Assembly (NCBI GenBank): GCA_043816605.1 | Contig: JBDRHR010000102.1 | Span: 1 to 45,904 of the forward strand | Length of the DNA: 45,904 bases | Direction: 5' to 3' | DNA from: Nitrospirota bacterium | GTDB lineage: Bacteria; UBA9089; CG2-30-40-21; SBAY01 | Part shown: piece after piece, positions 1-45,904 of the stretch | How the letters are laid out: the number at the start of each line of letters is the position of its first letter | Numbering within the stretch: the stretch's first letter is position 1 | Made by a program: the position numbers and the translations under genes | Notes under the pieces: model-generated | What the model saw: the letters and a program-made list of their open reading frames with translations, nothing else | What the model was told of the DNA's origin: nothing | Database searches by the model: none

Positions 1-160
1 GTAATGGGTCAGTTATCAGGGGGAGGAAGGGGTCCAGGATTCGAGGGTTCAAGGGTTCGAGTGTTTGTTTTTCCTTATTCCACTTGCCCCCTCGACCCCT
101 CAACCCCTTGAATCCTGTTGATACATTTTTCTATATCCCCCCCGAAGACTGACCCATTAC
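1..160. repeat. MITE-like element: 13-bp terminal inverted repeat enclosing an 8-bp-period inverted repeat
   Basis: gtaatgggtcagt (1-13) is the exact reverse complement of actgacccattac (148-160); the inner arms ggattcgagggttcaagggttcgagtg (~37-63) and cacttgccccctcgacccctcaaccccttgaatcc (~81-115) are imperfect inverted 8-mer arrays. Confidence 0.8.
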
Positions 161-286
161 ATAATTATACAGTTTCTGTTTATCTCCGAAAATCTTATTA
201 TACTTGCTTGATTTTTTCCCCAAATTTATAGTTTTCTAACTGTATAACATACATTTTGTAAATGATATCAAGAGAGATGGATAACT

Positions 287-431
287 ATAAGCATTCAGCC
301 GTCAACTTTCGGCATTCAGCCAGAATTAGAAAAATCAAAGGAAAATTGAACTTCACAATTTTATACCTTCTCTATTTTGTGACCTGACTCCTTAAAAACT
401 GATAGCTGACGGCTGATAGATGAACGCTTAC
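287..431. repeat. Heptamer-period inverted repeat element (TCAGC/GCTGA family)
   Basis: ataagcattcagccgtcaactttcggcattcagc (287-320) versus ctgatagctgacggctgatagatgaacgcttac (399-431). Confidence 0.7.
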
Positions 432-459
432 CTTAATCTCTCCCATCTTCCTCATTTTC

Positions 460-488
460 ATTCTACCAAATTTCTTAGATATTGTCAA
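460..488 (-). promoter_or_regulatory. sigma70-type promoter
   Basis: Minus strand TTGACA (488-483), 17 nt, TAGAAT (465-460). Confidence 0.6.
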
Positions 489-507
489 TCCTTTTTTGCC
501 TTATTCT

Positions 508-719
508 GTAATGGGTTAGTTACTGGTGGAAAATTCATCAAAAGGAAAATCCGAATCTCGAAATCCGAAATCCGAAACAATATCAAATTACCAAAATACA
601 AATGGTTAAAACAAGAACTATTTCGATATGTGGATTTTGAATTTTGGATTTGTTTCGAATTTCGATATTCGGATTTCGGATTTATAAAACTTTTTCCCCA
701 CTGATAACTGAGGCATTAT
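508..719. repeat. GTAATG-ended wrapper enclosing a heptamer (AAATCCG) inverted repeat
   Basis: Ends gtaatgggttagttactggtggaaaa and ttttccccactgataactgaggcattat resemble the ends of 1-160; inner arms at 547-580 and 650-683. Confidence 0.75.
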
Positions 720-810
720 CTCATCCTTTTGCCCCAGTTATCAAAGATAATATAGACAATGGAGACGATTATCAGGGACAATTAAGTATTGTGTCCTCCG
801 AATACAAAAC

Positions 811-1086: not shown

Positions 1087-1483
1087 AATATTACGACCTG
1101 TGCAATCGGAATTCACTACACAGCATAACCTATAACAATTCCACCTGCTACAATAATGTCACCCTTTCAGGGTTTAATTGTTGTTCAACAAATGCTACAA
1201 TAATATCATCCCTTCGGGATTAAATGCAAATTATACCACTTATACTAATTATACTAAGTTTTCGCCTGATCATTTTCTCAATTTTTAATTTTTAATTCAT
1301 AATTTTTAATTCTTAACAATTAGGCAAAAACTTTATATAAATCGTATTATTGAAGGCAAAATCCAACCCCAACGGGGTGATATTATTGTAGCAAAACAGC
1401 CAGAACAAGCAATCATAACCCCGAAGGGGTGGAATTATTATAGATTCATTATAACAAATTCCGATTGCACAGGTCGCAATATT
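1087..1483. mobile_element. Non-autonomous element of about 400 bp with 27-bp terminal inverted repeats and internal REP-like hairpins
   Basis: aatattacgacctgtgcaatcggaatt (1087-1113) versus aattccgattgcacaggtcgcaatatt (1457-1483), 26/27 match; internal hairpins accctttcagggt, atcccttcgggat, accccaacggggt, accccgaaggggt. Confidence 0.8.
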
Positions 1484-1850: not shown

Positions 1851-2005
1851 TTTAGCCACAAAGTCACAAAGAACACAAAGGAGAATAATAATCTTTTGAC
1901 AGGATTAACAAGATGAACATGATAATTTTCTTGTCTATCCTGTTATCCTGTCTAATATTTTATACTATAAAAATTTTCTTGGTGTCTTAGTGTCTTCGTG
2001 GCAAA
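1851..2005. repeat. Nested 9-bp-period inverted repeat elements overlapping the RND stop codon
   Basis: Outer gccacaaagtcacaaagaacacaaag / cttggtgtcttagtgtcttcgtggc; inner gacaggattaacaagatgaacatgat / ttgtctatcctgttatcctgtc. Confidence 0.75.
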
Positions 2006-7335: not shown

Positions 7336-7358
7336 TTTCTTTACCTCCTATAAATTTT

Positions 7359-7478: not shown

Positions 7479-7487
7479 AACTCCATT

Positions 7488-17770: not shown

Positions 17771-19093
17771 TTAATTGCATATTTCTCCTCCCATCGCCTT
17801 CCTCAGACTAAAGATAGCCATTTGGTAATCATAGATTGCCTTAACATAATTGGTTTTGGCATTATTAAAAGAGGCTTGAGCATCTATAACCTCATAGATA
17901 GGGGCTACCCCTGACTTATACCTTCCCTGAGTGGACTCAAAACTCTCCTTTGTTTGTGCTACCTGTTTTTCGGTAGTTTCTATTACCTTCTTTTGCGACT
18001 TTACAGTCAAGTATGCCTTCTTCACCTCTAAGGCAATATCTTTTTTTGACTGGTCTGTATTACTTTTGGTGTTTGATAGATTAATATTAGCCTTTATTAC
18101 CTCTCTTTTTGATTTACCGGCATCAAAAATCGGGACACTTGCTTTTACGCCTATCTCCCAATCCGAAGCATTATCCCAATCATATTTATTATTGATGAAT
18201 TGGTCAACATCGGTATTGTAATTACCTTCCAAAGTGATATTTGGCAAAACCTCTTTCTGTTTCAATTTCAGGTTTATCTCATCTATCTTTAAATTGATTT
18301 CAGCCTTCTTTATTTCAGGATGATTTTTTAAGGCATAAGCCAAACATTCATCAAGGGTCATCTCTCCTGTCAGACTTATCTCTCCTGTCAGACTTATCTC
18401 TTCTGTCAGACTTGTCAGGCTTGTCAGATCTATTCCTAAACAATTATTGAGGTCAGACAGGGCTAAGGAAAGTGTATTCTCTGCAGAAATCATGTCCAAC
18501 TCGCTACTTCCTACCTCTACTTCGGCTTTAAGGATGTCGGATTTAGGAGCAACTCCTGCATCATATCTTGCCCTGGCTAAATTGAGGTGAGTTTGTGCCT
18601 GTTTTAAACCTTCGCCTTTTACCTTGAGCATCCCTTGTGCTTTCAGGAGTTCATAGTAGCTCTTGATTACCTCAAGGGTCATCTCATCCTGTATTTCCTG
18701 GAAATCTAACCGGGCAGATTCCAGACGGGCTTTAGCCTGCTTGATTTCGTTAGGTGTCTTCCCATTATCATAAAAAATCTCTGTCAGGGACAGGCTAACA
18801 TCATAATGGTTTTCTGTCCATTCTATTTTATCGTAGGTGTCATTAACCTTATAACCTGCAGTAGCATTTAATTTCGGAAGATACTTTGCCCTCACATCCT
18901 TCACCTCTAACTCTGCTGTATCCATGCTCCTTTTAGCTATCGTTATCTTTGATGAATTCTCTAATGCTATCTGAATACATTCTTTTAGGGTCAATGGTTT
19001 TTCGGTGTTTAAGGATGTCCCTTGCACATAGGTGCTTGAGAAAGTAAGTAAAAGGATGACAATTATTGACACGGATTTTGATAAACATCCCAT
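17771..19093 (-). CDS. TolC-family outer membrane efflux protein
   Basis: Two OEP repeats, RYDAGVAPKSD, RYKSGVAPIYEVIDAQ; start uncertain (19093-19120). Confidence 0.9.
   Translation of the reverse strand: MGCLSKSVSIIVILLLTFSSTYVQGTSLNTEKPLTLKECIQIALENSSKITIAKRSMDTAELEVKDVRAKYLPKLNATAGYKVNDTYDKIEWTENHYDVSLSLTEIFYDNGKTPNEIKQAKARLESARLDFQEIQDEMTLEVIKSYYELLKAQGMLKVKGEGLKQAQTHLNLARARYDAGVAPKSDILKAEVEVGSSELDMISAENTLSLALSDLNNCLGIDLTSLTSLTEEISLTGEISLTGEMTLDECLAYALKNHPEIKKAEINLKIDEINLKLKQKEVLPNITLEGNYNTDVDQFINNKYDWDNASDWEIGVKASVPIFDAGKSKREVIKANINLSNTKSNTDQSKKDIALEVKKAYLTVKSQKKVIETTEKQVAQTKESFESTQGRYKSGVAPIYEVIDAQASFNNAKTNYVKAIYDYQMAIFSLRKAMGGEICN
18358..18430. repeat. 18-bp x3 and 9-bp tandem repeats within tolC
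   Basis: tctctcctgtcagactta x~3 then gtcaggctt/gtcagatc; encodes LTSLTSLTEEISLTGEISLTGE. Confidence 0.75.
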
Positions 19094-20215: not shown

Positions 20216-20358
20216 TAATTATCAATTATCAATTATCAATTATCAATTGTTAATTGTAAGAAAGGGAGGGACATAAGGGATAAAAGGTAATCAGTGAGCG
20301 GTGAGCAGGTAATTGGTTCTGCATCCAACATACTGATTACCAATTACCAATTACTAAT
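20216..20358. repeat. Two adjacent heptamer elements (AATTATC array; GGTAATC/ATTACC inverted repeat)
   Basis: aattatc x4 then aattgttaattgtaa; ggtaatcagtgagcggtgagcaggtaattgg / ctgattaccaattaccaattac. Confidence 0.7.
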
Positions 20359-20374: not shown

Positions 20375-22414
20375 ATGGAACTCAATGTGTCCCTTGGTGT
20401 AAGTGCATTTTTAGCCGGAGTGACTAATCTTTTCCTGGTAGGACTTGTTTTTTTTAGTGGAAGAAAATCCAGGATAAATAATATCTTAATCCTCAATGGA
20501 ATAATTTTGGCACTCTGGAATTTTGTCTCTCTGGGGGTATATTTTTCTTTAAGTGTAGCTTGGGCATTGATCTGGTTAAAATTCTATTACATAAGTTTAG
20601 TCTTTATCCCATCTGTCTTCTTTCATTTGGTGTCAGTTACTATTGCCGACCATCGATTGATGACTAAAAGACTTTGCCAGAGTGGGTATTTTTTAAGTTA
20701 TCTCTTTCTTATTCTAAGTGCAATAGGGGGAATGAGTCATGATGTTAACTATACTCAAGGTTGTTATTATCCCATAGGGGGCGGAGGTGATATTTTATTC
20801 TTTAGTTTCTTTATATTAGCTGGAGTTTATAGCCTTTTGACTTTAGCTCATAGAAAAGGGACAACCACTAATATTATTGAAAAAAGACATTTGCAATGGT
20901 TATTTCTGGGAGGATATATTAATATCTTAGGCATAAGTAGTAATTTACTTTGTCTTGTTAATAATAAGATATATCCGCTGGGGCATTTAGCCTGTGCTAT
21001 TTATCCTTTAATAATTGGTTATGGTATTGTCAGGCATAGATTGATTACGCTTGAAACTAAAGAGATTGAGATTTCTGGAAGGAAATTTATTTATCTGGGA
21101 TTAAGTTCAATTCTATTCGTTTTGTTTTTGGTAAGCCTTTTAACCCTTGAGACAATGTTTAGAAGACTAATAGGTTATAATTCACTTTTACCGGCTATAT
21201 TAATTATTATGATATTGACTTTCCTTTTTCAGTTCGGGCGAGAGAAGATTCAAACATTAATTGATAAATATTTCTTTTTTGAAAGACTTAATCAAGAGCA
21301 GATGGTTAAAGACATCAGCCGTAAAATAACCTCTATTTTTGATAAGGAGATATTATTAGATATCTTTTTAAATTCTATAGTAAATAGAATGCATATTCGT
21401 AATGCTTGTGTGATTTTATTCGATGAATTCACCCAGATGGCTCAGGTAAGTCGAGCAGTCGGGCTCGATATAATAAAAAGAAAGATAATGAAATTTAATA
21501 GTGATTCAGGACTAATTCATCGCCTGATGCAAACTAAAATGCCGATTATCAAGGAAAAAGAAGAAAATAGTCCCGGCAACTACCAGCGTGAGATAAAAAA
21601 AGACTTTGAAGGATTAAATGCAATAATTTGTATCCCTTTAACCTGCAAGGATAAGTTGTTAGGGATGTTAGCCATAGGAGAAAAGCTCTCTTTAGAACCA
21701 TATAAAAAAGAAGAAATAGAGATACTTTCAATCCTATGTAATGAAGCAGGGGTAGCTATTGAAAATGCGCATCTTTATCATGAAAAGATGCGCCAACTTT
21801 TGAATACTATTCAATCATTATTAGTCGCAGCAGAGGCAAAAGACCCCTATATCCATGGGCATTGTGAGCGGGTAGCCGACTATTCGGCTAAAATTGCACA
21901 AGAACTTGGGTTAGATGCAGAAAATGTAGAAACAACTAAAATAACCGCCTTCTTACATGATTTAGGTAATATTGGTGTCTCAAATCAAATACTTCATAAA
22001 AAAGGCAGGCTAACTATAGAAGAGTTTGAAAATGTCAAGAGACATACAGCCATCGGAGCAAAAATTCTGGAACCAATTTGTTCTAAAAAAGAGATTATTG
22101 AAGGGATAAAATTTCATCATGAAAGAATGGATGGCAGTGGTTATCCATGGGCTTTAAATGATAAAATGGTCCCTTTAATTGCTAAAATTATTACCGTAGC
22201 GGATGTCTATGATGCTATGACTTCAACTCGACCTTATCGGAAGGCATTTACCCCGGAAGATGCCATATCAGAACTTAAAAGAGGTTGTGGCTATGAATTT
22301 GATGGTAAAGTGGTATCTGCATTTATTAAGGCATTAAACAAAGATTTTAATAGAAAAAGAATATTACGGAATGAAAGCAGAACACAGAGCACAGAACACA
22401 GAATACAAATTTAA
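20375..22414 (+). CDS. Membrane (7TM-type sensor) - GAF - HD-GYP cyclic dinucleotide phosphodiesterase
   Basis: Multiple N-terminal TM segments; IPLTCKDKLLGMLAIG GAF; AKDPYIHGHCERV, HDLG, HHERMDGSGYP, RPYR. Confidence 0.9.
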   Translation: MELNVSLGVSAFLAGVTNLFLVGLVFFSGRKSRINNILILNGIILALWNFVSLGVYFSLSVAWALIWLKFYYISLVFIPSVFFHLVSVTIADHRLMTKRLCQSGYFLSYLFLILSAIGGMSHDVNYTQGCYYPIGGGGDILFFSFFILAGVYSLLTLAHRKGTTTNIIEKRHLQWLFLGGYINILGISSNLLCLVNNKIYPLGHLACAIYPLIIGYGIVRHRLITLETKEIEISGRKFIYLGLSSILFVLFLVSLLTLETMFRRLIGYNSLLPAILIIMILTFLFQFGREKIQTLIDKYFFFERLNQEQMVKDISRKITSIFDKEILLDIFLNSIVNRMHIRNACVILFDEFTQMAQVSRAVGLDIIKRKIMKFNSDSGLIHRLMQTKMPIIKEKEENSPGNYQREIKKDFEGLNAIICIPLTCKDKLLGMLAIGEKLSLEPYKKEEIEILSILCNEAGVAIENAHLYHEKMRQLLNTIQSLLVAAEAKDPYIHGHCERVADYSAKIAQELGLDAENVETTKITAFLHDLGNIGVSNQILHKKGRLTIEEFENVKRHTAIGAKILEPICSKKEIIEGIKFHHERMDGSGYPWALNDKMVPLIAKIITVADVYDAMTSTRPYRKAFTPEDAISELKRGCGYEFDGKVVSAFIKALNKDFNRKRILRNESRTQSTEHRIQI

Positions 22415-22449
22415 TTATCTGTGTTCTGTGCTCTGTGTTCTGTACTCTG
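22378..22449. repeat. CACAGAR heptamer inverted repeat across the HD-GYP stop codon
   Basis: cagaacacagagcacagaacacaga / tctgtgttctgtgctctgtgttctg. Confidence 0.85.
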
Positions 22450-22652: not shown

Positions 22653-22661
22653 ATTTTAGGA

Positions 22662-22733
22662 CGGTAATCGGTGAGAGGTAATCAGGTTATCGGTGAGGAA
22701 AACGCAATAATCGGTTGTCACCAATTACCGATT
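22662..22733. repeat. GGTAATC-family degenerate inverted repeat
   Basis: ggtaatcggtgagaggtaatcaggttatcgg / caccaattaccgatta. Confidence 0.55.
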
Positions 22734-22749
22734 AAGGATAAGGAAATAA

Positions 22750-23187: not shown

Positions 23188-23290
23188 AAATTATGAATTA
23201 AAAATTAAAAATTGAGGAAAGAGAAAATAATTCATATTTTTTATTCTCTTACTCTTCAATTTTTAATTTTTAATTCATAATTTTTAATTT
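23182..23290. repeat. AATTAAA heptamer inverted repeat element supplying the upstream stop codon
   Basis: aattaaaaattatgaattaaaaattaaaaattga / tcaatttttaatttttaattcataatttttaatt. Confidence 0.85.
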
Positions 23291-23311
23291 CCTAATATTA
23301 AGGAGTAATGA

Positions 23312-24388
23312 ATGGATTTTACATTTGATAACCTATTGCAAGAGATGGTAAAAGAAGGTGGCTCTGACTTACATATTCGTGTAGGAGAACCACCATTTTT
23401 CAGGATAAATGGGAATTTGATTCGCTCAACTAAATTTCCAACATTATCTAATGAAGAGGCTAAAAAGTTATTATACAGTATCTTAAGTGAGGAACGAAGA
23501 ATAAAATTTGAGGAAACCCTTGAGTTAGACCTATCTTATACCATTCCTGATATAGCCAGATTTAGAGTCAATATCTTTCAACAAAGGAATTGTATAGGTG
23601 CGGCTATTCGAATGATACCTATAAAAATCCAGACTGTTGACGAATTAGAATTACCTCAGGTATTTAAACAACTTGCCTTACTTCCACGAGGATTTATATT
23701 AGTTACAGGACCTACCGGCAGTGGTAAATCAACAACCTTGGCCGCTATGATTGACCATATAAATACTAATAAAAAGGGAAATATAATAACTATTGAAGAC
23801 CCCATAGAATTTGTTCACGCAGATAAATTAAGTGTTGTTAACCAACGGGAGGTAGGTGTTGATGCTCTATCTTTTGGAGATGCCTTAAAACATGTTATGC
23901 GTCAAAATCCTGATGTTGTTTTAGTAGGTGAGATGCGAGATTTGGAAACTGTTTCCTCGGCTATTACTGCGGCTGAAACAGGCGTTTTAGTCTTTGCTAC
24001 ATTACATACCAATAATGCCGTTCAAACCATAGATAGAATCATAGATGTTTTCCCTGTTGAACAGCATGAACAGGTTAGACTTCAATTATCCGTAAATTTA
24101 CAAGCTATTATTTCACAAACTATAATTCCAAGATCTGATGGTAAGGGAAGAGCAGTAGCATTTGAAATTATGATTGCTATCCCTTCCATAAAAAGTCTAA
24201 TTAGGGAAGGGAAGGCACATCAAATGTATACTATTATTCAAGCCAGTGGTGGATATGGCATGCGAACATTGGATAGTGACCTCTTAGAGTTAGTGAAAAA
24301 TAATCTGATTAGTTATGAAGAGGCATTAGCCAGGGCACCAAATCCAAAGGAATTTGAACAAAGGATAAGTAGAATTCGAGCAATGTAA
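23312..24388 (+). CDS. pilT: Type IV pilus retraction ATPase
   Basis: SDLHI, GPTGSGKSTT, TIEDPIE, GEMRD, TLHT, SIKSLIRE. Confidence 0.92.
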   Translation: MDFTFDNLLQEMVKEGGSDLHIRVGEPPFFRINGNLIRSTKFPTLSNEEAKKLLYSILSEERRIKFEETLELDLSYTIPDIARFRVNIFQQRNCIGAAIRMIPIKIQTVDELELPQVFKQLALLPRGFILVTGPTGSGKSTTLAAMIDHINTNKKGNIITIEDPIEFVHADKLSVVNQREVGVDALSFGDALKHVMRQNPDVVLVGEMRDLETVSSAITAAETGVLVFATLHTNNAVQTIDRIIDVFPVEQHEQVRLQLSVNLQAIISQTIIPRSDGKGRAVAFEIMIAIPSIKSLIREGKAHQMYTIIQASGGYGMRTLDSDLLELVKNNLISYEEALARAPNPKEFEQRISRIRAM

Positions 24389-24395
24389 TAGGTAA

Positions 24396-24485
24396 ATAGA
24401 CTGTAGGCTATTAGGCTGAAGGCTGTTAGGTTAGGCATGCATAATTTCCTCCTACAGTCTAATAGCCTACAGCCTAACAGCCTAT
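24396..24485. repeat. AGGCTG(T/A)-family inverted repeat element
   Basis: agactgtaggctattaggctgaaggctgttagg / cctacagtctaatagcctacagcctaacagcct. Confidence 0.85.
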
Positions 24486-25566: not shown

Positions 25567-25617
25567 AAAAGTGAAAAGTTGAAAGTTGAAAGTTAAAAGT
25601 AGGTAAGAGGATTTTAA

Positions 25618-26616: not shown

Positions 26617-26670
26617 TAAATTTATATAAGTCCTATAAGACCTATAATTTTAAAAAGGAGGATTTGAAAA

Positions 26671-27204: not shown

Positions 27205-27268
27205 TATTTAAAAATAGGTCATATAAGACTTATATGACCTATTTTTAATTTACAAGGAGGATAAATCA

Positions 27269-27736: not shown

Positions 27737-27856
27737 AAGTTATAGAGTTAAAAGTTATAAAGTTGAAAGTTGAAGATTGGAAGTTAGGGTATTACTGTCT
27801 CTCACTTATTTTTTCCTTCTTACTTTATAACTTTCAACTTTATAACTTTATAACTT
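27737..27856. repeat. AAGTT(G/A)A 7/8-mer inverted repeat element
   Basis: aagttatagagttaaaagttataaagttgaaagtt / actttataactttcaactttataactttataactt; a solo arm of the same family lies at ~25567-25600. Confidence 0.8.
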
Positions 27857-28802: not shown

Positions 28803-28836
28803 GTTGGACAAGTCAGACAGGTCTGACTTGTCCAAC
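28803..28836. repeat. Perfect 16-bp hairpin of the GACAAGTCA 9-mer family
   Basis: gttggacaagtcagac-ag-gtctgacttgtccaac. Confidence 0.85.
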
Positions 28837-28851
28837 CAAGGAAAAAGCCTT

Positions 28852-29991: not shown

Positions 29992-31009
29992 TTGGTTAAA
30001 TTTAGTATTCTTATTTTTTCTATTAGCCTTTTCTGCCTTTAATTTTGCTGCAGAAATATCTATTATTGCCTTAGGCAAAATAAAATTGAAGGCTTTAGTC
30101 GAAAAAGGGCAAGTCAAGGCAAAAATTATCAGCAAGGTATTCGCTCATCCGGAACGGCTCTTTGGAACTATCTTAATCGTCAATAACCTTGTAACCATCT
30201 TAGCCGGCTCAATTGGGACTATTCTTGCCTTAAATCTATTTGGGGATATAGCGGTAATTCCGGCAACCATTATCGTTACCCTTCTTATCACGATGGGCGA
30301 TGTGATAGCAAAAACCTACGCTGCCAGAAACCCGAAACAGGTCTCTTTTTTAACCATTCGTCCCTTACAAATTATTATGTTTATTTTCTACCCATTGGTG
30401 AAATTCTTTGCCGTGGTTACAAATTTTATTATAAGAATTATGGGTGGTGGAAAGGATTTGTCCCCCTTTGTCAGCAAGGAAGAATTACGGATGCTGATTA
30501 AAATTGGGCATGAAGAGGGGGTATTAGAAGAAAAAGAAAGAGAAATGTTACATCGTATCTTTGAATTCAGTCAGAAGAAGGCAAAAGAAATTATGGTTAA
30601 GGCAGACAAGATGGTAGCATGTGATTTAGATTCACCGATAGAGGAGATTCTGGATAGGATAATTGACTCGGGACATAGACGGATACCTGTTTTTAAAAAT
30701 AATGTTCACAACATTATCGGCATAGCCTATACCAAAGACCTGTTAGTTATGGCCAGAAATGTGGAATTATTGATATTAGAGGATTGTCTGACCAAACCAC
30801 ACTTTATCGCAGAGGATATGCGGGTGATTGACCTGTTAAGTGAATTTCAAAAAAGCAAGGTGCATCTGGCTATTGTTCGAGATGGAAATGATAAGGTAGT
30901 GGGATTAGTGGCTATTGATGACCTATTTGCAGAAATCGTAGGGGAGATTATCCCGGAGCACCAGGATAGTAGAATTATCAATTATCAATTAATAATTAAT
31001 AATTGTTAA
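29984..31009 (+). CDS. CNNM/DUF21 + CBS (hemolysin/CorC-like) protein
   Basis: DUF21 TM region, tandem CBS domains, AEIVGEI. Confidence 0.88.
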   Translation: MANWLNLVFLFFLLAFSAFNFAAEISIIALGKIKLKALVEKGQVKAKIISKVFAHPERLFGTILIVNNLVTILAGSIGTILALNLFGDIAVIPATIIVTLLITMGDVIAKTYAARNPKQVSFLTIRPLQIIMFIFYPLVKFFAVVTNFIIRIMGGGKDLSPFVSKEELRMLIKIGHEEGVLEEKEREMLHRIFEFSQKKAKEIMVKADKMVACDLDSPIEEILDRIIDSGHRRIPVFKNNVHNIIGIAYTKDLLVMARNVELLILEDCLTKPHFIAEDMRVIDLLSEFQKSKVHLAIVRDGNDKVVGLVAIDDLFAEIVGEIIPEHQDSRIINYQLIINNC

Positions 31010-31051
31010 TTCTATTCAGGCATTTATCCGCCTACAAGAAGGAAAAAAGAA

Positions 31052-36988: not shown

Positions 36989-37112
36989 TCACCACAGAGA
37001 CACGGAGGCACAGAGAATGATTTTGGAAGAAGCACTTACAGAACAGATAATTGGGACAGCAATAGAAGTTCATAATCTGATTTTTTCCCGTGTCTCCGTG
37101 TCTCTGTGGTGA
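36989..37112. mobile_element. 9-mer-period inverted repeat element enclosing a GxxExxY gene fragment
   Basis: Perfect 19-bp arms tcaccacagagacacggag (36989-37007) / ctccgtgtctctgtggtga (37094-37112). Confidence 0.8.
37017..37079 (+). pseudogene. N-terminal fragment of a GxxExxY (PD-(D/E)xK-like) protein
   Basis: MILEEALTEQIIGTAIEVHNL matches the GxxExxY N-terminus LT.QIIG.AIEVH..LG; the rest is missing. Confidence 0.75.
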
Positions 37113-38330: not shown

Positions 38331-38385
38331 GTCCTATATGACCTATAAGTCCTATAATCCTAATTAAATTAAGGAGGAACAAACC

Positions 38386-39279
38386 ATGTCGGAAATAGTG
38401 CTACTTAACACCAATATAAAGGATGTGCGCACCCATTCTAAAGGCAAAGTCAGGGATATTTACGACTTTGGCGATAAACTTTTAATCATCGCTACCGATA
38501 GAATCTCTGCCTTTGATGTCGTTTTGCCAAATGGCATTCCACACAAAGGTAAGGTCTTGACCGCTCTATCTCTATATTGGTTTGAGCTAACTAAAAATAT
38601 TATTAAAAACCACCTCATCACCGCAGATGTAGCGGAATATCCAATCGAGATAGCAAAATATAAAAGTGTATTAGCCGGGCGGTCAATGCTGGTGAAGAAA
38701 ACAAAGGTTTTGCCGGTAGAGTGTGTGGTGCGTGGGTATTTAGCCGGCTCAGGCTGGAAGGAGTATCAGGAAAGCCGGTCTGTATGCGGGATTAAACTAT
38801 CTGCCGGGCTTGTAGAGTCGGCAAAATTGCCGGAACCTATCTTTACCCCATCTACAAAAGCAACCTCTGGACATGATATTAATATTACCGGGGCTCAAAC
38901 GCAAGATATTGTTGGAATTGAGACGGCAAAATTTTTAAAAGAGGTAAGTGTCCGTATTTTTGAGTTAGCCGGTAAAGAATTAGAGAAAAAGGGGATAATT
39001 CTGGCGGATACAAAGTTTGAATTTGGGGTGTATGAGGATGAAATTATCCTGATAGATGAGGTGTTGACCCCTGATTCCTCCAGATTTTGGCCCAGGGATG
39101 AATACTGCCCGGGTGGGCCACAACCGAGTTTTGATAAGCAATTTGTCAGGGACTACCTTGAGAAAATCAGATGGGATAAAAACCCACCTGCTCCAACACT
39201 GCCGGATATTATTATAAAAAAGACCTCAGAGAAATATCTTGAGGCGTATAGAAGAATATGTCCTATAAGACCTATATGA
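38386..39279 (+). CDS. purC: SAICAR synthetase
   Basis: GKVRDIY, TDRISAFD, ADTKFEFG, DEVLTPDSSRFW. Confidence 0.96.
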   Translation: MSEIVLLNTNIKDVRTHSKGKVRDIYDFGDKLLIIATDRISAFDVVLPNGIPHKGKVLTALSLYWFELTKNIIKNHLITADVAEYPIEIAKYKSVLAGRSMLVKKTKVLPVECVVRGYLAGSGWKEYQESRSVCGIKLSAGLVESAKLPEPIFTPSTKATSGHDINITGAQTQDIVGIETAKFLKEVSVRIFELAGKELEKKGIILADTKFEFGVYEDEIILIDEVLTPDSSRFWPRDEYCPGGPQPSFDKQFVRDYLEKIRWDKNPPAPTLPDIIIKKTSEKYLEAYRRICPIRPI

Positions 39280-39309
39280 CCTATTCTTTACTAAATTGGA
39301 GGTTAAAAA

Positions 39310-40881
39310 ATGAATAATGTATTAATCTATGATACGACCCTACGAGATGGGGCACAAACTGAAGGAATATCGTTTTCTGTTAAGGAAAAGATTCGGATTA
39401 CTCAAATGATAGACCATCTGGGTGTTCATTATATCGAAGGTGGTTGGCCTGGGTCAAATCAAAAAGAGACCGAGTTCTTTCAGGTGATAAAGAATTACCC
39501 CCTTAAAAATGCGAAGCTTGTTGCCTTTGGAAGTACCAGACGGGCAAAACACAAAGTGGAAAATGACCCAAGTTTTTTAGAGCTATTAAAGGCAGAAACG
39601 CAGGTAGTCTGTATATTTGGTAAAACTTGGGACCTGCATGTGCATGAGGCACTCAATATCCCTTTGGAAGAAAATTTAGAGTTAATACAAGACTCGGTAA
39701 GTTATTTAAAATCAAAAGGTAAAGAGGTAATTTATGATGCCGAGCACTTCTTTGACGGCTATAAGGCAAATCCTGAATATGCCTTAAAAACTATTTTTAC
39801 GGCACAAAACGCCGGGGCAGATACAATTGTGCTTTGCGATACTAATGGCGGCATGCTCCCTTATGAAATAGAAAAGCCAATTAAAGAGGCACTAAAAGTA
39901 ATTAAAGTGCCTCTGGGTATTCATAGCCATAATGATTCAGATATGGCGGTAGCAAATTCTATCATTGCCATAAAGTTAGGCTGCCGGCATGTCCAGGGGA
40001 CTATCAATGGTTATGGGGAACGATGTGGTAATGCAGATTTATGTGCCATCATACCCAATTTAAAACTTAAAATGGGCATAAATTGTATTTCAGATGAGCA
40101 ACTTGGGAGTTTAACAGAGGTATCCAGATTTGTCGCAGAAATGGCAAATTTCATCCCGCAACCTCATACACCTTACGTAGGAAGCTCTGCCTTTGCTCAT
40201 AAAGGTGGGGTTCATGTCAGTGGTGTCCAAAAAAATCCTAAAACATACGAACATATTCAACCGAAATTAGTTGGGAATGAGCGGAAAATACTCATCTCAG
40301 AATTAGCCGGACAAAGTAATATCTTAGAGAAGGCAAAGGAACTCAAGATAGACCTTAACGAGGCAAGCCTCTCAAAAAATACACCACAAACAAGAAAAAT
40401 ATTAGCCAGGGTTAAAGAGAAAGAACACGAAGGTTACCAATTTGAATCTGCAGATGCCTCATTTGAATTACTGATAAAAAAGGCGTTAGGAAAATATAAA
40501 CCCAGTTTTGAATTAAAGAAATTTGAGGTTATTGTCGAAAATAGAAATGGAGAGCTTTTTTCAGATGCGATTATTAAAATAGAGGTAAATGGTCAGGAAA
40601 AATATATAGTTGCAGAAGGTGATGGTCCGGTGAACGCACTGGATACTGCCCTTAGAAAGGCATTAGAAGATGCTTACCCAATTCTAAAAAAGATTCATTT
40701 AACGGATTACAAGGTCAGGGTGCTGGATGCCAAAGAAGGCACAGCCGCAAAGGTCCGGGTATTAATTGAGTCAACAGATGGAAAAGATTTCTGGGGCACA
40801 GTTGGGGTCTCTGAAAATATCATTGATGCCTCCTGGCAGGCATTAGTGGATTCAGTAGAATACATTCTTTCTAAGAATTAA
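39310..40881 (+). CDS. cimA: Citramalate synthase
   Basis: [40 protein letters not shown]. Confidence 0.9.
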
Positions 40882-40976
40882 AAATTATGAATTAAAAATT
40901 AAAAATTATAAGATTAAGAATTAAGAATTATTTTCTAACTCCTCAATTTTTAATTTTTAATTCATAATTTTTAATT
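40876..40976. repeat. AATTAAA heptamer inverted repeat element (copy of 23182-23290)
   Basis: Same arms aattaaaaattatgaattaaaaattaaaaatt / aatttttaatttttaattcataatttttaatt; overlaps the cimA stop codon. Confidence 0.85.
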
Positions 40977-40995
40977 AATTAAGAGGTGATTTGCC

Positions 40996-42418: not shown

Positions 42419-42444
42419 TTCTTTACCTCCTCGTATAATATGTT

Positions 42445-42632
42445 AAATGTGTAATGTGTAATGTCTTACATAACACATTACACATCTAACATTACACAGT
42501 TAAGCCATCAGGGCACAAAGGCACTAAAAAGTTAAAGTAAGCAGTCGGCAGGAGGCAGTAAGCAGGAAATAAAAATTATTTCTTACTTTCTCCTTCTCAT
42601 TTTCTTCGTGTCTTTGTGCCTTCGTGGCTAAA
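42445..42632. repeat. Cluster of short-period inverted repeats between the metF-like gene and queA
   Basis: tgtgtaa / ttacaca heptamers (42445-42497); gccatcagggcacaaaggcac / gtgtctttgtgccttcgtggc 9-mer arms (42504-42628) enclosing gcagtcg/gcaggag/gcagtaa heptamers. Confidence 0.75.
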
Positions 42633-42634
42633 AT

Positions 42635-43669
42635 CTATATAATTAACATCGCATCGCCATAGCTGTAAAATCTGTAGCCTTTATTGATGGCGGACTGATA
42701 TGCCCCTAAAATCCTTTCTTGCCCTGCAAAGGCACTCACTAAGAGCAAAAGCGTGGTTTTTGGTAGATGGAAATTCGTAACCAGCATATCCGTTACCTTA
42801 AAGTTAAACCCAGGATAAATAAACAAATCTGTAACGCCCGAACAAGGGAATATTTTGGATTTTGGATTGGGGATTTTGGATTGGGGATTTTTACCCACTG
42901 TTTCTAACGCCCGCACGGCAGTTGTGCCTACAACTACTATCCTTCCCCTTGTCTGGTTAATGATTTCCGCCGCCTGACTGCTTATTTCATAATATTCTTC
43001 TTCCATCTGATGCTCAAGCACATCTTCATTTCTAATGGGAGCGAATGTGCCTACACCCACATGCAAGGTAATATAGGCTAATTGGACACCCTTCTCCTGT
43101 ATTTTCTTGAGCAATTGGTGGGTAAAATGTAACCCCGCCGTAGGTGCGGCAATAGCTCCACGATGCCTGGCATAAACCGTTTGATATTGCTCCGCATCCG
43201 CTTCATTTGACTCTCTTTTAATATAATGGGGTAATGGGAGTTTGCCCACCTTACTTAGTATCTTAAAGAAATCCCCCTCATACTCAAATTTAACAAATCC
43301 GTAACCGCCTCTTTTTTCTATTAATTCACCTGTTAGTTCATCTCCAAACTGTAATTTTGCCCCTATTTTAACCTTTCTTGCCGGTTTAATCAGTACTTCC
43401 CAAACCTGGTCTGGGTGATTCTTACTAAGTAATATCTCTACTTTCTTAAGCCCATTTATTCCAAATAATCTTGCCGGAAAAACCTTGGTATCATTCAAAA
43501 CTAAGGTATCGCCAGGGACTAAATACTCAATTATATCCCTAAAAACTTTATCCTCAATCCGTCCATCGCTACGATGTAAGACCAAAAGTCTTGATTCATC
43601 CCGATTAGTTAAAGGCTGTTGGGCGATTAATTCTTTAGGTAAGTAATAATCAAAATCTGTCAATTTCAT
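42635..43669 (-). CDS. queA: S-adenosylmethionine:tRNA ribosyltransferase-isomerase
   Basis: DFDYYLPKELIAQ, AAPTAGLHF, TNFHLP, YRFYSYGDAM; true ATG at 43669. Confidence 0.96.
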   Translation of the reverse strand: MKLTDFDYYLPKELIAQQPLTNRDESRLLVLHRSDGRIEDKVFRDIIEYLVPGDTLVLNDTKVFPARLFGINGLKKVEILLSKNHPDQVWEVLIKPARKVKIGAKLQFGDELTGELIEKRGGYGFVKFEYEGDFFKILSKVGKLPLPHYIKRESNEADAEQYQTVYARHRGAIAAPTAGLHFTHQLLKKIQEKGVQLAYITLHVGVGTFAPIRNEDVLEHQMEEEYYEISSQAAEIINQTRGRIVVVGTTAVRALETVGKNPQSKIPNPKSKIFPCSGVTDLFIYPGFNFKVTDMLVTNFHLPKTTLLLLVSAFAGQERILGAYQSAINKGYRFYSYGDAMLII

Positions 43670-43714
43670 CTGAAAATACCTCATTCTGCTTTTCGCAAAG
43701 GTCGCAAAGAAAGA

Positions 43715-43814
43715 TATAGCCACAGATTCACAGATTATTAGGATTATAAAGAATATAAGGGGTAAGATATATCTAAATATTCCAATCTGTATAATCTGTG
43801 AATCTGTGGCTATA
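43715..43814. repeat. CACAGATT 9-mer inverted repeat element
   Basis: Perfect 24-bp arms tatagccacagattcacagattat / ataatctgtgaatctgtggctata. Confidence 0.88.
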
Positions 43815-43844
43815 ATTTCTTGCTCTTTTCCGAGCAATCAGGAA

Positions 43845-45710
43845 TTAGATTCGTCCCTTACATTCAAGTAAGAATCGTGATGGCTGACCAAAACTACCAC
43901 TGTATAATCTCCTTTTTATGGCATAAGAGAGAAAGAGTTGCTCCTTTGCCCGAGTCATACCGACATAACAAAGCCGCCTCTCTTCCTCTTTTTCCTCTTC
44001 ATCACGGGCATTCATATGCGGAAGTATCCCTTCCTCTAAACCTATCAGGAATACATAACTAAATTCTAATCCCTTGGCTGAATGCAAGGTCATTAGACTT
44101 ACCTTGGCTGATGTATCATCCCATTTATCAAGATTAGTGTAAAGTGAGATGTTGGATAAGAATGCCTCTAAAGTTTTATCCTCATTTGACGCCTCAAATT
44201 CCTCTATACTGATAAGAAATTCCTTTATGTTGTCGAGCCTGTCGTGTTCGGCTAATTCCTCTAATTCCTGTTTGTAGCCTGTTTTATCAATCACCGACTT
44301 AGTTAATTCAAGCACACCTAAAGTTTGCTTTAGTTTTATGAAATTATCCATTAATTCTACAAATTTCTTGATGGAGGCGGTAGCTTTTTGTGGTAAAAGT
44401 TCAGCCGTTTGTATTTCTTTTAGGGCAGGATATAAATGTATGCCTTTTTCTCGTGCAAAATCTGCTATCTTTTGAATGGTTGTCTTTCCGATTGAGCGTG
44501 CGGGAACATTTATAATCCGTTTTAAACTCACCGCATCCTGGGGATTAGCCATTACCTTTAAATAGGCTAAAATATCTTTAATCTCTTTTCTTCCGTAGAA
44601 ACTTACCCCTCCGATAATCGCGTAAGGCACATTAGCCCTTCTAAATGCCTCTTCTAAAACCCGCGATTGGGCATTAACCCGATAAAGGACAGCGAAATTA
44701 TTTAACGAAGTCCCCTGCCCACTTATCTCAAGCACCTTTCTTGCCACAAAAGACGCCTCATGATGCTCATCAGTGCCAACATAAGTTATAACCGGCAGTC
44801 CACCTGTTTTCTGCGTCCAGAGTGTTTTCCCCTTACGGTCAATGTTATGGCTTATTACCCGATTAGCTGTTGAAAGAATTGCCTCTGTTGAACGATAATT
44901 TTCTTCCAATCGAATAATCTTTACATTTTTATAATCCTTTTCAAAATCTAAGATATTTCGGATATCTGCCCCTCTAAAGGAATAGATTGACTGGTCATCA
45001 TCCCCTACACAACAGATATTATTATGCCTTTGGGCTAACATTTTTGTAAAAAGATACTGCACATAATTAGTATCCTGATATTCATCAATCAATAAATACT
45101 TAAACCTATTCTGGTAAAGTTCCAAAATTTGCGGATATTCCTGCCAGAGTAAAACAGTCTTCATCAAAATATCATCAAAGTCTAAGCCGTTATTTTCGTC
45201 TAATTTGGATTGATATAATTCATAAAGCGGTTTAATCCTTTGCTCAAAGAAATTTGTAGGTGTATATTCCGAAGCGGTAATTAAAGTTTCTTTGGCACGA
45301 GAGATGTTGGATAAGATGGCTTTGGGCTGCAGGGCAAGATTTAGTTCCTTCAGGCATTCCTTAATAAGGCTATTCTGGTCATCGGCATCATAGATAGTAA
45401 AATTAGGGTTTTTAAGGTGAGAACGCAGAATTCTGACGCAGGCAGAATGAAAGGTGCTAATCCAGAGTCTTTGTCGGCTAAAGGAGCCATTCAGGAGTTC
45501 TACCCGCTTTTTCATCTCAGCTGCGGCTTTATTGGTAAATGTGACGCTGAGGATGTTCTCCGGGGCAATTCCTTGATGCAATAAATACGCAATGCGATAT
45601 GTAATTACCCGTGTTTTACCAGACCCTGCCCCGGCTAAGACCAATAAAGGTCCATCGGTATGTAATACTGCCTCTTTTTGCTGTGGATTTAAACCCTTTA
45701 AAATCTCCAT
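43845..45710 (-). CDS. pcrA: UvrD/PcrA DNA helicase
   Basis: AGAGSGKT, DEYQD, VGDDDQSIY, ENYRS, TLHSAKGLEF, EERRLCYVGMTRA. Confidence 0.93.
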   Translation of the reverse strand: MEILKGLNPQQKEAVLHTDGPLLVLAGAGSGKTRVITYRIAYLLHQGIAPENILSVTFTNKAAAEMKKRVELLNGSFSRQRLWISTFHSACVRILRSHLKNPNFTIYDADDQNSLIKECLKELNLALQPKAILSNISRAKETLITASEYTPTNFFEQRIKPLYELYQSKLDENNGLDFDDILMKTVLLWQEYPQILELYQNRFKYLLIDEYQDTNYVQYLFTKMLAQRHNNICCVGDDDQSIYSFRGADIRNILDFEKDYKNVKIIRLEENYRSTEAILSTANRVISHNIDRKGKTLWTQKTGGLPVITYVGTDEHHEASFVARKVLEISGQGTSLNNFAVLYRVNAQSRVLEEAFRRANVPYAIIGGVSFYGRKEIKDILAYLKVMANPQDAVSLKRIINVPARSIGKTTIQKIADFAREKGIHLYPALKEIQTAELLPQKATASIKKFVELMDNFIKLKQTLGVLELTKSVIDKTGYKQELEELAEHDRLDNIKEFLISIEEFEASNEDKTLEAFLSNISLYTNLDKWDDTSAKVSLMTLHSAKGLEFSYVFLIGLEEGILPHMNARDEEEKEEERRLCYVGMTRAKEQLFLSYAIKRRLYSGSFGQPSRFLLECKGRI

Positions 45711-45718
45711 TAAGATAT

Positions 45719-45747
45719 ACTATACCATAAAGTTTATAAAAAGTCAA
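45719..45747 (-). promoter_or_regulatory. sigma70-type promoter for pcrA
   Basis: TTGACT, 17 nt, TATAGT with a TG extended -10. Confidence 0.55.
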
Positions 45748-45904
45748 GAAAAGTAAGTGCCAAACAGAAATTCCCCATCTTTGTTTCCCATGGAAAAAGT
45801 TAATTAAACTTCTGTCTAATGCCAACATCTCCCCCTTTCCCCAAAATCTCCATTTTGAGATCTATATTTAAACTGTTCGAAACAGCGTTTTGGAAGGTAT
45901 CCTT

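Follow-up and report, generated by a model that had tools for sequence, protein, structure and literature searches.

Tandem heptamers and small palindromic repeats have been described in several bacterial groups. Mazel et al. reportedly described the STRR heptamers of heterocystous cyanobacteria in 1990 as direct arrays built from three units, and cyanobacterial small dispersed repeats that nest within one another are said to have been reported by Elhai et al. in 2008. A Xanthomonas study cites three heptanucleotides of Calothrix PCC 7601 as STRR and reports (GGGAATC)n repeats in convergent pairs near stop codons, 70 in X. campestris and 75 in X. axonopodis (Rehm et al. 2015, PMC4692102). Direct TAACTGA heptamers occur in Beggiatoaceae, cyanobacteria and Bacteroidetes (MacGregor 2015, PMC4679880), Porphyromonas gingivalis has a MITE with an internal minisatellite (PMC4596501), and REP sequences and REPINs go with RAYT transposases (Bertels & Rainey 2011, PMC3116915; Di Nocera et al. 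2013, PMC3733652).

The window analysed here, a contig of 45,904 nt from a 2.62-Mb Nitrospirota MAG (G000), had been described preliminarily as holding more than 25 elements with two inverted arms of 7-9-nt tandem units, and such hairpins are real both in the window and genome-wide. Tandem Repeats Finder gave 81 rows in the window, with periods mostly 7, 8, 9 or multiples, and there are 78 inverted pairs no more than 150 nt apart, the longest 25 of which include the sites named in the preliminary description. However, the figure of more than 25 is true only with one-armed arrays included, because direct reading gives about 25 elements of which about 15 are two-armed, and a strict automatic criterion yields just 12 hairpins. 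The features are listed below, with strand where one was assigned.

1..160: shell palindrome (GTAATGGGTCAGTTATCAGG ... CTGACCCATTAC) around a two-armed GGGTTCRA 8-nt-unit hairpin (27-117; arms 35-61 and 91-117)
507..720: shell-like outer inverted repeat around a two-armed AAATCCG 7-nt-unit hairpin (547-683); member of a 140-190-nt family
1280..1316: AATTAAA/AATTTTT family arm, one-armed copy
1857..2000: two-armed, nested, with outer CACAAAG 8-nt-unit arms (1857-1880 and 1977-2000) and inner GACAGGAT-type arms (about 1899-1951); the 3' end of an AcrB-family ORF runs into its right arm
13880..13990: partial second copy of the CACAAAG and GACAGGAT composite of 1857..2000
15468..15530: two-armed AGGCTGT-family hairpin, arms 25 nt, 92% complementary
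16618..16762, minus strand: heptamer arrays (ATTCGGG, ATTTTGG, ATTCTGT, CTGCCTC) in frame within an HlyD-like ORF, encoding a SKIQNPKSKI-type peptide
17740..17785: one-armed AATTTTT/AATTCAT array, AATTAAA family
20217..20256: AATTATC x4.6 array, then AATTGTTAATTG, upstream of an HD-GYP gene
22378..22449: two-armed CAGAACA/CAGAGCA hairpin, arms 25 nt, 100% complementary, overlapping the HD-GYP gene stop
22655..22740: two-armed GGTAATC/GGTTATC-type inverted repeat
23177..23294: two-armed AATTAAA-family doublet, arms 54 nt, 91% complementary
24388..24485: two-armed AGGCTGT-family hairpin with PilT-type ATPase genes on either side, two in all
25567..25600: one-armed AAAAGTT x4.9 array upstream of accA
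26624..26647: one-armed TATAAGNCC 9-nt units, accA/hpf junction
27208..27250: two-armed palindrome of TATAAGAC units, hpf/ptsN junction
27737..27856: two-armed AAGTTATA/AAGTTGA hairpin, arms 27 nt, 93% complementary, ptsN/hprK junction
28803..28837: two-armed perfect palindrome, GACAAGTCA-type, hprK/pheA junction
30966..31011: two-armed AATTATC/AATTAAT palindrome providing the last codons and stop of a CNNM/CBS gene; left edge of a 4.2-kb block of trehalose genes that was not found at the L001 syntenic position
36989..37112: two-armed CACAGAG/CACGGAG hairpin, arms 23 nt, 96% complementary; right border of a 0.86-kb nucleotidyltransferase-pair stretch not found at the L001 syntenic position
38331..38360: GTCCTATAA-type 9-nt units; L001 has the same family at the same junction
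39257..39290: GTCCTATAAGACCTATATGACC units providing the purC C-terminus and stop; at this junction L001 carries an AATTAAA-type element in their place
40872..40979: two-armed AATTAAA-family doublet, arms 32 nt, 100% complementary
42440..42492: two-armed AATGTGT hairpin, arms 25 nt, 92% complementary
42493..42639: two-armed outer hairpin, GGCACAAAG-type, inter-arm distance 71 nt
42852..42891, minus strand: ATTTTGG/CCAAAAT heptamers in frame within queA
43715..43814, minus strand: two-armed CACAGATT 8-nt-unit hairpin between a UvrD-like gene and queA; core of a dispersed element of about 230 nt bounded by ATGAAAC ... GATGAAA

The elements starting at 1280, 13880, 17740, 20217, 25567, 26624, 38331 and 39257 are one-armed or short. 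The start of the contig falls within the shell repeat of 1..160. The recurrences reported earlier were correct: the same AATTAAA-type arm is carried at 23182, 40876, 1287 and 17752, AGGCTGT is common to 15468 and 24397, and TATAAGACC-type units are common to 26624, 27215, 38331 and 39257.

A genome-wide scan for periodic palindromes gave an excess far above chance. The MAG holds 526 hairpins, and arrays of period 7, 8 and 9 number 1337, 707 and 636, against 78, 93 and 97 in a first-order Markov shuffle; enrichment is narrow in period, being 17x at 7 nt, 7.6x at 8 and 6.6x at 9 compared with 2.8x at 6 and 1.9x at 10. A reverse-complement partner within 200 nt was found for 1057 of 2801 arrays, versus 26 in a reversed-only control. 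Mean arm GC is 34%, and there are about 170 unit types (177 counted). The periodic-hairpin architecture is a lineage trait, since paired arrays were present in 5/5 same-family, 3/5 same-order and 5/12 other genomes sampled from the phylum, and absent from the one other-phylum sample.

Comparison with relatives showed how quickly these elements change. Nine orthologous junctions in five relatives gave, in our reading, 39 cells, 28 with a different family, 9 empty or short and 2 with the same family; the relatives are 77-85% identical, the closest one compared being at about 85%. Gain and loss at gene junctions thus occur on the timescale of genus divergence, and dominant families differ among genera. 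All nine empty cells lie in G002, G003 and G005, where the element is therefore dispensable; in G000, G001 and G004 nearly every junction examined holds some element, although not always of the same family. These results support the conclusion that we are dealing with DNA that is mobile or turns over rapidly and not with fixed terminators, and to that extent the earlier interpretation stood, but its preference for one mechanism instead of many MITEs was not supported.

All the large families examined proved to be dispersed repeats, each defined by its sequence and sharply bounded. For the AATTAAA arm there are 84 matches at 56 loci, including 27 complete doublets, with an identical start base and unrelated flanks. 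Full-length consensus sequences of 120-230 nt reach past the periodic arms in several families, and conserved full-length copies and subfamilies were found in ACAGCCT, AAAAATG, AAATCCG and AATCTGTG. Summed contig depth from four metagenome runs peaks on the elements, and 96/526 hairpins lie at contig ends, as expected because repeats break assemblies. One 25-nt arm is letter-identical in G008, from another family-level lineage with housekeeping DNA about 72% identical; G008 has 180 matches to this 25-mer at no more than 2 mismatches, and G002, G003 and G005, all of the window's own family, have 0. Such identity would reflect sequence constraint or transfer.

On balance, and with somewhat better than even confidence, we read the elements as many MITE/REPIN-like families combined with host-level slippage in 7-9-nt steps, the mobilising enzymes being candidates only. 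Non-coding DNA would have been colonised by many separate small palindromic repeat families of the MITE/REPIN kind, the window being typical, and each family would be defined by its sequence, with sharp outer ends, conserved arms and, in many cases, a body of 120-230 nt that is also conserved, in tens of copies and lineage-specific sets. The common look of 2-5 imperfect 7-, 8- or 9-nt units per arm would come mostly from a host-level mutational process, replication slippage in 7-9-nt steps that adds or removes units in place, ordinary genes included. In the housekeeping gene queA, which has no palindrome, G000, G001, G002 and G004 carry 6 imperfect heptamers where G003 and G005 carry 3. This 21-nt expansion indicates that unit slippage also acts on ordinary DNA, so that the periodic architecture common to the families could more simply originate at the level of the host. 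Between G000, G004 and G001, orthologous AATTAAA and ATTTTCG elements likewise have unequal numbers of units and different unit variants, and the number also varies among copies within G000 (C183, C220). Unit gain and loss are observed, and we infer slippage as their cause; a 7-nt bias from polymerase slippage is an idea of Mrazek 2007, as summarised in PMC4679880. Hairpin copies may persist because the hairpin is required for mobilisation or by selection, or, alternatively, template switching in quasi-palindromes may copy changes from arm to arm. Slippage alone leaves unexplained the periodicity of both arms, the step size of 7-9 nt and the richness of 5' arms in purines.

This last rule, real and absent from the preliminary description, holds across families, with purines prevailing in the 5' arm and pyrimidines in the 3' arm (108 versus 4 unit types; 31 versus 2 by coarse clusters; 33 versus 4 in pooled relatives), independent of strand, and hints at a constraint or mechanism common to families. 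The earlier proposal of one structure-based or templated-synthesis mechanism would gain from it. One structure-recognising machinery, whether a hairpin-specific transposase or nuclease or template-switching or fold-back synthesis recognising periodic palindromes, would then build and/or move all families whatever their sequence, a reading we hold to be improbable. It agrees with an architecture common to all families, with unit length narrowly at 7-9 nt, with different families repeatedly hitting the same small junctions, and with palindromes lodged, in either orientation, in the middle of other palindromes (shell cargos; window 1857-2000; junction J4 of G005), which suggests structure-directed targeting. 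Against it stand the sharp family-specific ends and conserved non-periodic bodies, the heptamer expansion in queA, and the letter-level conservation of an arm across family-level divergence, which a sequence-blind machinery does not require. In an own-partner test of 8 families, arms of AAATCCG, AACCCTTG and AACCCCCT fit their own partner no better than other copies' arms; in the remaining 5/8, own-partner ranks were better than for exchangeable arms (medians 3-9 versus 12-22 expected), and the mean arm-match score was 26.7 within elements versus 23.6 between. This excess is of the size that subfamily structure gives, and there is no clear sign of one arm copied from the other, because own arms match only slightly better and in 3/8 families no better.

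Moreover, no candidate enzyme tracks the elements. None of the 9 Y1 (RAYT-like) genes of the MAG is flanked by tandem-unit hairpins; other, ordinary REPs flank the RAYT-like genes, and the MAG holds true REP/RAYT systems. G001 is element-rich, yet has one degenerate Y1 match below cut-off (88%-complete MAG). A search for a transposase tied to any tandem-unit family found none, and no autonomous IS with ends matching the elements was found in the MAG. Under the preferred reading of many separate families, Y1/HUH transposases acting on single-strand hairpins would be the leading candidates for at least one of them (AATCTGTG).

It is quite unlikely that the elements are immobile and arise in place by slippage and quasi-palindrome template switching, with local sequence (e.g. 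A-tract/T-tract terminator flanks) as source and convergence or gene conversion behind their likeness across loci. In-place expansion is seen in queA as well as in orthologous elements, the elements fill the space from stop codon to next ribosome-binding site, and the A-rich 5' and T-rich 3' arms of many families match bidirectional-terminator polarity; that 97/177 unit types occur in one hairpin only fits in-place birth equally with decayed or rare families. Nevertheless, 27 AATTAAA doublets and about 29 single arms at unrelated loci share a 25-36-nt arm with an odd ATG unit, and many loci hold elements of 120-230 nt conserved over their whole length. Occupancy of divergent junctions, which are not expected to carry terminators, is no lower than that of the others, and family sets differ among genera while one arm recurs letter for letter in a more distant genome.

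Folding of 14 window elements gave a long hairpin each time (energies of -12.9 to -56.6 kcal/mol, z-scores of -3.7 to -15.0), with 0/200 shuffles folding as well, and if transcribed the elements are predicted to form 20-50-bp stems within operon mRNAs. In operons of housekeeping genes they are packed closely into the space separating a stop codon from the following ribosome-binding site. Occupancy of most gene junctions, as first described, is roughly right: with genes called by a longest-ORF heuristic and no gene finder, 21/36 window junctions carry a 7-9-nt tandem array (9/36 a strictly paired one) and 891/1801 do genome-wide. Hairpins lie at 22% of codirectional, 21% of convergent and 27% of divergent junctions (24%, 28% and 33% in a second count), so that occupancy is independent of junction type and 3' ends are not preferred. 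The elements are indeed not classical terminators, since T-runs are few (at least 5 T within 8 nt past the 3' arm in 71/520 hairpins) and a terminator consensus scan flags 2 elements, both on the non-coding strand. Host-selected elements kept at junctions for putative roles in mRNA 3'-end protection, as RNase III sites, attenuators or terminators, or as site arrays for nucleoid- or RNA-binding proteins, would account for the stable hairpins, their tight placement, the near-complete occupancy in G000, G001 and G004 despite family change and the strand-independent polarity, but are scarcely probable in view of the 9/39 empty cells, the absence of preference for 3' ends over 5'-5' junctions, the rarity of terminator features and a 7-9-nt unit that would mismatch the helical repeat expected for phased protein binding.

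By analogy, the genome may be seen as a multi-family version of the heptamer repeats known from Xanthomonas and cyanobacteria. Cyanobacterial STRR are likewise said to comprise a few heptamer families that are amplified in tandem, repeated many times and placed between the genes of operons, but they belong to another phylum and are reportedly direct arrays of three units. The (GGGAATC)n repeats of Xanthomonas also consist of tandem heptamers in convergent stem-loop pairs, intergenic and often at or overlapping stop codons, with unit number varying, there between species; however, they have one G-rich quadruplex-prone unit instead of about 170 unit types at 34% arm GC, 83% keep gene context between two species whereas here 2/39 cells keep family, and that study reports no mobile-element association, in contrast to the dispersed sharp-ended families here (PMC4692102). 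TAACTGA heptamers are also abundant intergenic arrays whose patchy phylogeny suggests horizontal spread by no known vehicle, but they are one unit, almost always direct (1 inverted set of 170) and just upstream of start codons (PMC4679880). REP sequences and REPINs resemble our elements in having a conserved short sequence as singlets and inverted doublets with variable spacer, extragenic, in tens to hundreds of copies, and able to form hairpins as single-stranded DNA or RNA (PMC3116915); unlike the small REP palindrome with its conserved tag, the arms here are tandem units pairing only with the partner arm, and they do not flank Y1 genes as REPs do. The elements resemble bacterial MITEs in their small size, lack of coding sequence, multiple copies, terminal inverted repeats, long hairpins and mutual nesting; unlike MITEs, no target-site duplication could be defined and no parent IS was found here, the inverted repeats are themselves periodic, and periodicity and arm polarity are common to many unrelated families.

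Repeat scans, array counts against shuffled sequence and folding all agree that the paired architecture of 7-9-nt units claimed for this window in the preliminary description is real. Tandem Repeats Finder returned 81 rows in the window, mainly with periods of 7, 8, 9 and their multiples, and a repeat search found 78 close inverted pairs, the longest of which are the sites first described. Inspection of all the window intergenic regions showed two arms of 2-5 imperfect units flanking a spacer, with the typical element filling the gap from a stop codon to the next ribosome-binding site. Approximately 17 two-armed and 8 one-armed elements were recognized by eye, and a strict automatic criterion recovered 12. 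All 14 window elements that were folded were predicted to form long hairpins (-12.9 to -56.6 kcal/mol, z -3.7 to -15.0), and none of 200 shuffles folded as well.

The same architecture extends through the genome (G000), a Nitrospirota MAG of 2.62 Mb in 250 contigs with a GC content of 37.6%, 93.6% completeness and 1.7% contamination. The genome-wide periodic-palindrome scan that had been suggested as a check revealed 1337, 707 and 636 arrays of period 7, 8 and 9, against 78, 93 and 97 in a Markov-1 shuffle, with an enrichment of just 2.8-fold at period 6 and 1.9-fold at period 10. A reverse-complement partner was present within 200 nt for 1057 of 2801 merged arrays, compared to 26 in a reversed-only control. 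The scan yielded 526 non-overlapping hairpins of about 170 unit types; their arms have a median length of 23 nt and a mean GC of 0.34, and the median loop is 38 nt. Automatic counting of nested elements gave 2 cases, a number limited by the 200-nt partner cut-off, and the nesting examples cited here were found by eye. As a separate observation, the octamer GCGATCGC is absent from the 2.62 Mb of G000, where we estimate that about 10 copies would be expected by base composition.

The gene content of the window is ordinary. It comprises RND and ABC efflux systems, McrBC, TetR, an HD-GYP protein, two PilT-type ATPases, accA, hpf, ptsN, hprK, pheA, a CNNM/CBS protein, a trehalose synthesis block, purC, a LeuA-like synthase, metF, queA and a UvrD-like helicase. 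No match was obtained when it was scanned for Rfam families and tRNAs. The elements had been said to occupy most gene junctions, and for arrays this is roughly right (21/36 junctions in the window and 891/1801 in the genome), while paired arrays were found at only 9/36 and 454/1801, figures that depend on a longest-ORF heuristic for gene calls. Hairpins occupy 336 of 1508 codirectional, 33 of 158 convergent and 37 of 135 divergent junctions, so that occupancy of divergent junctions is at least that of the other types; the remaining hairpins lie within long ORFs (24) or at contig ends (96). Nearly all of them (502/526) are not wholly within an ORF of at least 100 aa, and the median distance from stop codon to element is 30 nt, with the stop itself overlapped in 60 of 369 cases.

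Intrinsic terminators have a GC-rich stem and a short loop followed by a U-tract, and are found at the 3' ends of transcription units. A consensus terminator scan of 20 kb (window 21501-41500) returned 21 sites against 15.3 +/- 3.9 expected, of which only 2 overlap elements, both on the non-coding strand, and a T-run follows the 3' arm in 71 of 520 hairpins. Divergent junctions are equally occupied. In both position and form the elements thus differ from intrinsic (Rho-independent) terminators, an identity that was rejected here and that the preliminary description had denied for classical ones.

Gene 3' ends are extended or supplied by elements, and some elements are inserted in frame inside genes. 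purC owes its C-terminus and stop codon to a TATAAGACC element in G000, and to an AATTAAA element in L001, a syntenic relative record whose AccA is 86% identical to that of the window (the next AccA matches are at 54-57%). Two stretches of the window were not found at the syntenic position of L001, namely 30964-35221, which holds the trehalose block (OtsA/OtsB fusion, DUF5752, TreT-like), and 36270-37131, with a nucleotidyltransferase and substrate-binding pair. A tandem-unit hairpin borders each of them on one side, at 30966-31011 and 36989-37112, respectively.

The idea of a shared architecture without shared sequence could not be maintained for the large families examined, which are defined by sequence and whose copies begin at the same base and often share a conserved body. 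The 25-nt AATTAAA arm, allowing up to 3 substitutions, has 84 matches at 56 loci in G000, all with an identical start base and with unrelated flanks. These loci are 27 complete doublets and about 29 single arms; the doublets have in common an arm of about 36 nt, including an odd ATG unit, and their loops are variable and fall in subfamilies. No common direct repeat was found in the AATTAAA flanks, where the 3 nt outside often just lengthen the stem. The ACAGCCT, AAAAATG, AAATCCG and AATCTGTG families behave in the same way, and their bodies, of 120-190 nt, are often conserved too. At the core of an element of about 230 nt, bounded by ATGAAAC and GATGAAA, lies the AATCTGTG hairpin; ATGAAA at either end could represent target plus element end, and in 8 of 8 copies between codirectional genes the element points along the genes. 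In kind, these families are similar to MITEs and REPINs, with inverted repeats that happen to be periodic.

A separate outer palindrome, which we call the shell, is present in G000 as 323 end copies and 83 short pairs. The content between its arms is varied: in either orientation, the shell encloses a GTAG-type REP doublet or one of two different 8-nt-unit hairpins. It was rejected as a universal outer end for the elements, its hexamers being 6-9 times enriched yet present in fewer than 10% of flanks, and no long pair among the 323 end copies encloses a transposase that would mark a parent IS. The shell end CTGATAACTGACCCATTAC, found in the window at 1-20 and 140-160, includes TAACTGA, which may be a coincidence; according to passages of PMC4679880, this heptamer is abundant as direct repeats in Beggiatoaceae, cyanobacteria and Bacteroidetes.

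Unit gain in 7-nt steps is not confined here to palindromic or mobile DNA. In the same-family relatives G003 and G005, queA has three imperfect heptamers, which encode KNPESKI, and in G000, G001, G002 and G004 it has six (window 42852-42891), an in-frame gain of 21 nt that has diverged since. An HlyD-like ORF (window 16618-16762) contains in-frame heptamer arrays with 7-aa repeats of PKSKIQN type, as in queA. The queA gain, together with the differences in unit number among copies and orthologous elements, supports host-level slippage behind the shared look of the families. An idea credited to Mrazek et al. 2007 in the summary of PMC4679880, namely that slippage favours steps of about 7 nt, is in agreement with this.

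The templated synthesis that had been proposed found no such support. Arms fit their own partner only slightly better than they fit an arm from another copy, and in 3 of 8 families no better; because the mild preference is what subfamilies would be expected to give, fold-back or templated copying between arms was rejected. Template switching in quasi-palindromes is known from the E. coli literature, and either this process or selection on the hairpin may keep the arms symmetrical.

Arm composition follows a rule that crosses families. Of the 526 hairpins, 321 have a 5' arm with more than 60% purine and 25 have one with less than 40%. The polarity of a purine-rich 5' arm and a pyrimidine-rich 3' arm outnumbers the opposite one by 108 to 4 unit types and 31 to 2 coarse clusters; pooled samples of 13 relatives gave 33 to 4. 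This polarity is independent of strand, since a palindrome reads alike on both. In AT-rich families it equals the A-then-T polarity of bidirectional terminators, and G-rich units are polar too. The polarity rule and the narrow 7-9-nt step keep alive the idea of a single machinery.

Comparison with relatives showed that the elements are not fixed at orthologous junctions. The closest genome among those compared has about 85% nucleotide identity, and a scan of metagenome contigs with AccA returned nothing above 60% identity. Synteny with the window from 20 to 41 kb is seen in five same-family genomes (G001-G005, 77-85% nucleotide identity), and nine orthologous junctions, assigned by reading, gave 39 junction-by-genome cells: 28 hold a tandem-unit element of a different family, only 2 keep the same one, and the other 9 are very short or empty. 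The junction after the HD-GYP gene has CAGAACA units in G000, ATTTTCG in G004 and G001 and another unit in G002, and is empty in G003 and G005. The two ATPase genes are separated by AGGCTGT units in G000, by ATTTTCG units in both G004 and G001 and by a composite of four layers in G005; G002 has 3 nt there. Orthologous elements of the same family differ in unit number and unit variants. At the junction orthologous to window 24389-24501, the spacer of the ATTTTCG hairpin in G004 is the reverse complement of that in G001, which implies that the segment between the arms was inverted or that the element re-inserted in the opposite orientation.

In samples of 5-48 kb from 23 other genomes, paired arrays were present in 5/5 same-family, 3/5 same-order and 5/12 other same-phylum genomes and in 0/1 from another phylum, all small samples. 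With up to 2 mismatches, the AATTAAA 25-mer has 73 matches in G000, 107 in G004, 52 in G001 and 180 in G008, which belongs to another family and has about 72% nucleotide identity in housekeeping genes. At the same threshold it is absent from G002, G003, G005 and 13 other genomes; it is rare in G006, G009 and G011, and its matches in G024 are at the control level of that genome. A patchy distribution of letter-perfect AATTAAA arms points to sequence-specific maintenance or horizontal spread, and is at odds with recognition blind to sequence. Four metagenome DNA runs contain the organism at low depth, and joints at elements in them resemble other family copies. A phage vector was rejected, since the AATTAAA arm and the shell end have one exact viral-contig match each, taken as chance because both are in coding-like sequence without a partner arm.

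The search for an enzyme gave one lead. No general link to HUH/RAYT genes was seen: G000 has 9 Y1_Tnp (IS200/RAYT-like) matches, including that in the window, and none of the 9 is directly flanked by tandem-unit hairpins, although at 93.6% completeness a gene may be missing. Their readable 400-nt flanks hold ordinary REP-type hairpins of other families, and across 11 relatives Y1 counts do not track element abundance (one degenerate match in G001, fragments only in G002). RAYT was therefore rejected as a general mobiliser. OrfB_IS605 (TnpB) and DDE_Tnp_1 have zero matches in G000; the 5 RVT_1 (reverse-transcriptase) and 3 DDE_3 (IS630-like) matches were rejected because their flanks are untied to the elements, and one full DDE_3 ORF that was checked lacks such ends. 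No IS was found in G000 to which the elements could serve as ends, and IS copies are often missing from MAGs. Of the refuting outcomes named in the preliminary description, neither fixation across relatives nor a known IS with these ends was thus seen. The lead is the AATCTGTG element, whose ATGAAAC tag is common to its bounds and to REPs beside two RAYT-like genes, and whose orientation bias is of the kind expected from single-strand transposition. As a general tag ATGAAAC was rejected, being within 120 nt of 33 of 526 hairpins compared to 4.6% of control anchors.

Other repeats of the window, beside the Y1 gene and elsewhere, are as follows.

1150-1440: four copies of a REP type with small GC hairpins such as ACCCCGAAGGGGT and ATTATTATAG-like tails, the type that flanks Y1 genes on two other contigs of G000 (C51 and C160)
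5288-5324: perfect 11-nt array of GATTGCCGGAC (x3.4) with GTAATC/GATTAC on either side, its period outside the 7-9-nt class
7336-9600: many copies of the REP-type ATGAAAYYCTAAAGRRTTAAYTCC surrounding the Y1 ORF, also at 5543-5682 and 9440-9600
7488-8018, minus strand: Y1_Tnp ORF of 176 aa, between the McrB-like (5632-7335) and McrC (8094-9407) genes
19963-20119: three GTTCCGTTAGGAAC-like palindromes, then ATATTGGTAGAAAC-like sequence, in the TetR/HD-GYP divergent region

The Y1 locus has the appearance of a REP/RAYT system that entered a restriction operon, and the palindromes at 19963-20119 could be an operator or another repeat family.

A composite mechanism, in which mobile palindromes would be combined with slippage in steps of 7-9 nt, is the likely origin of these elements. 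We regard them as joining a large number of families, at very high density and with rapid turnover, to a common polarity, in a phylum for which they had not been described; no account of multi-family tandem-unit hairpins in Nitrospirota was found in the main texts searched. It seems improbable to us that a dedicated machinery builds or spreads palindromes of 7-9-nt units with fixed polarity by recognising structure rather than sequence. Such a machinery could take the form of a hairpin-specific single-strand transposase or nuclease, or of a template-switching polymerase activity; its products would be the roughly 170 unit types across half of the gene junctions, and the elements would constitute a new, structure-defined class of mobile DNA.

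With arrays at half of the junctions and long predicted hairpins at a quarter, many in housekeeping operons, the elements must affect the lineage, presumably through mRNA structure, operon expression and genome rearrangement. They border accessory-gene indels and break assemblies, and binning, assembly and gene calling of MAGs from these Nitrospirota should account for them. The lineage is a natural experiment on why long simple repeats of bacteria favour 7-nt units, and on a second old question, how REP/MITE-like palindromes are born, keep their symmetry and move. Two regularities can be put to the test, the sharp step of 7-9 nt and a polarity that unrelated families share regardless of strand.

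Among known systems, MITEs resemble these elements in being non-coding, multi-copy, shorter than about 500 bp and bounded by terminal inverted repeats, but here no parent IS with the same ends was found in G000. In REPs, the repeat unit is itself a short and imperfect palindrome that carries a conserved tag at its end, for example GTAG or CGTC. The elements share with REPIN/RAYT systems a dispersed, extragenic occurrence as inverted doublets and singlets; however, their arms are tandem 7-9-nt units without internal palindrome or common tag, and no cognate Y1 gene is flanked by them in G000, where true tagged REPs are present elsewhere. REPINs and MITEs have the doublet or inverted-repeat design in common with the Nitrospirota elements, whose arms, unlike theirs, are periodic. 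The STRRs of heterocystous cyanobacteria are direct arrays of few units, three of which have been described. Like the elements they are tandemly amplified, highly repeated heptanucleotides, but the host here is a Nitrospirota, and STRR1-3 were compared by description only. The TAACTGA repeats, in the part of PMC4679880 that treats them, are direct arrays as well, unlike the paired inverted arms and many families seen here. The closest description found is that of the paired heptamers of Xanthomonas: according to the portion of PMC4692102 consulted, (GGGAATC)n arrays form 70-75 convergent pairs near stop codons, with a unit number that varies between species and a gene context kept in 83%. Both systems have convergent pairs of tandem heptamer arrays near stops, but in place of a single G-rich quadruplex unit the Nitrospirota genome has its many unit types of low mean GC, with the family kept in 2 of 39 cells.
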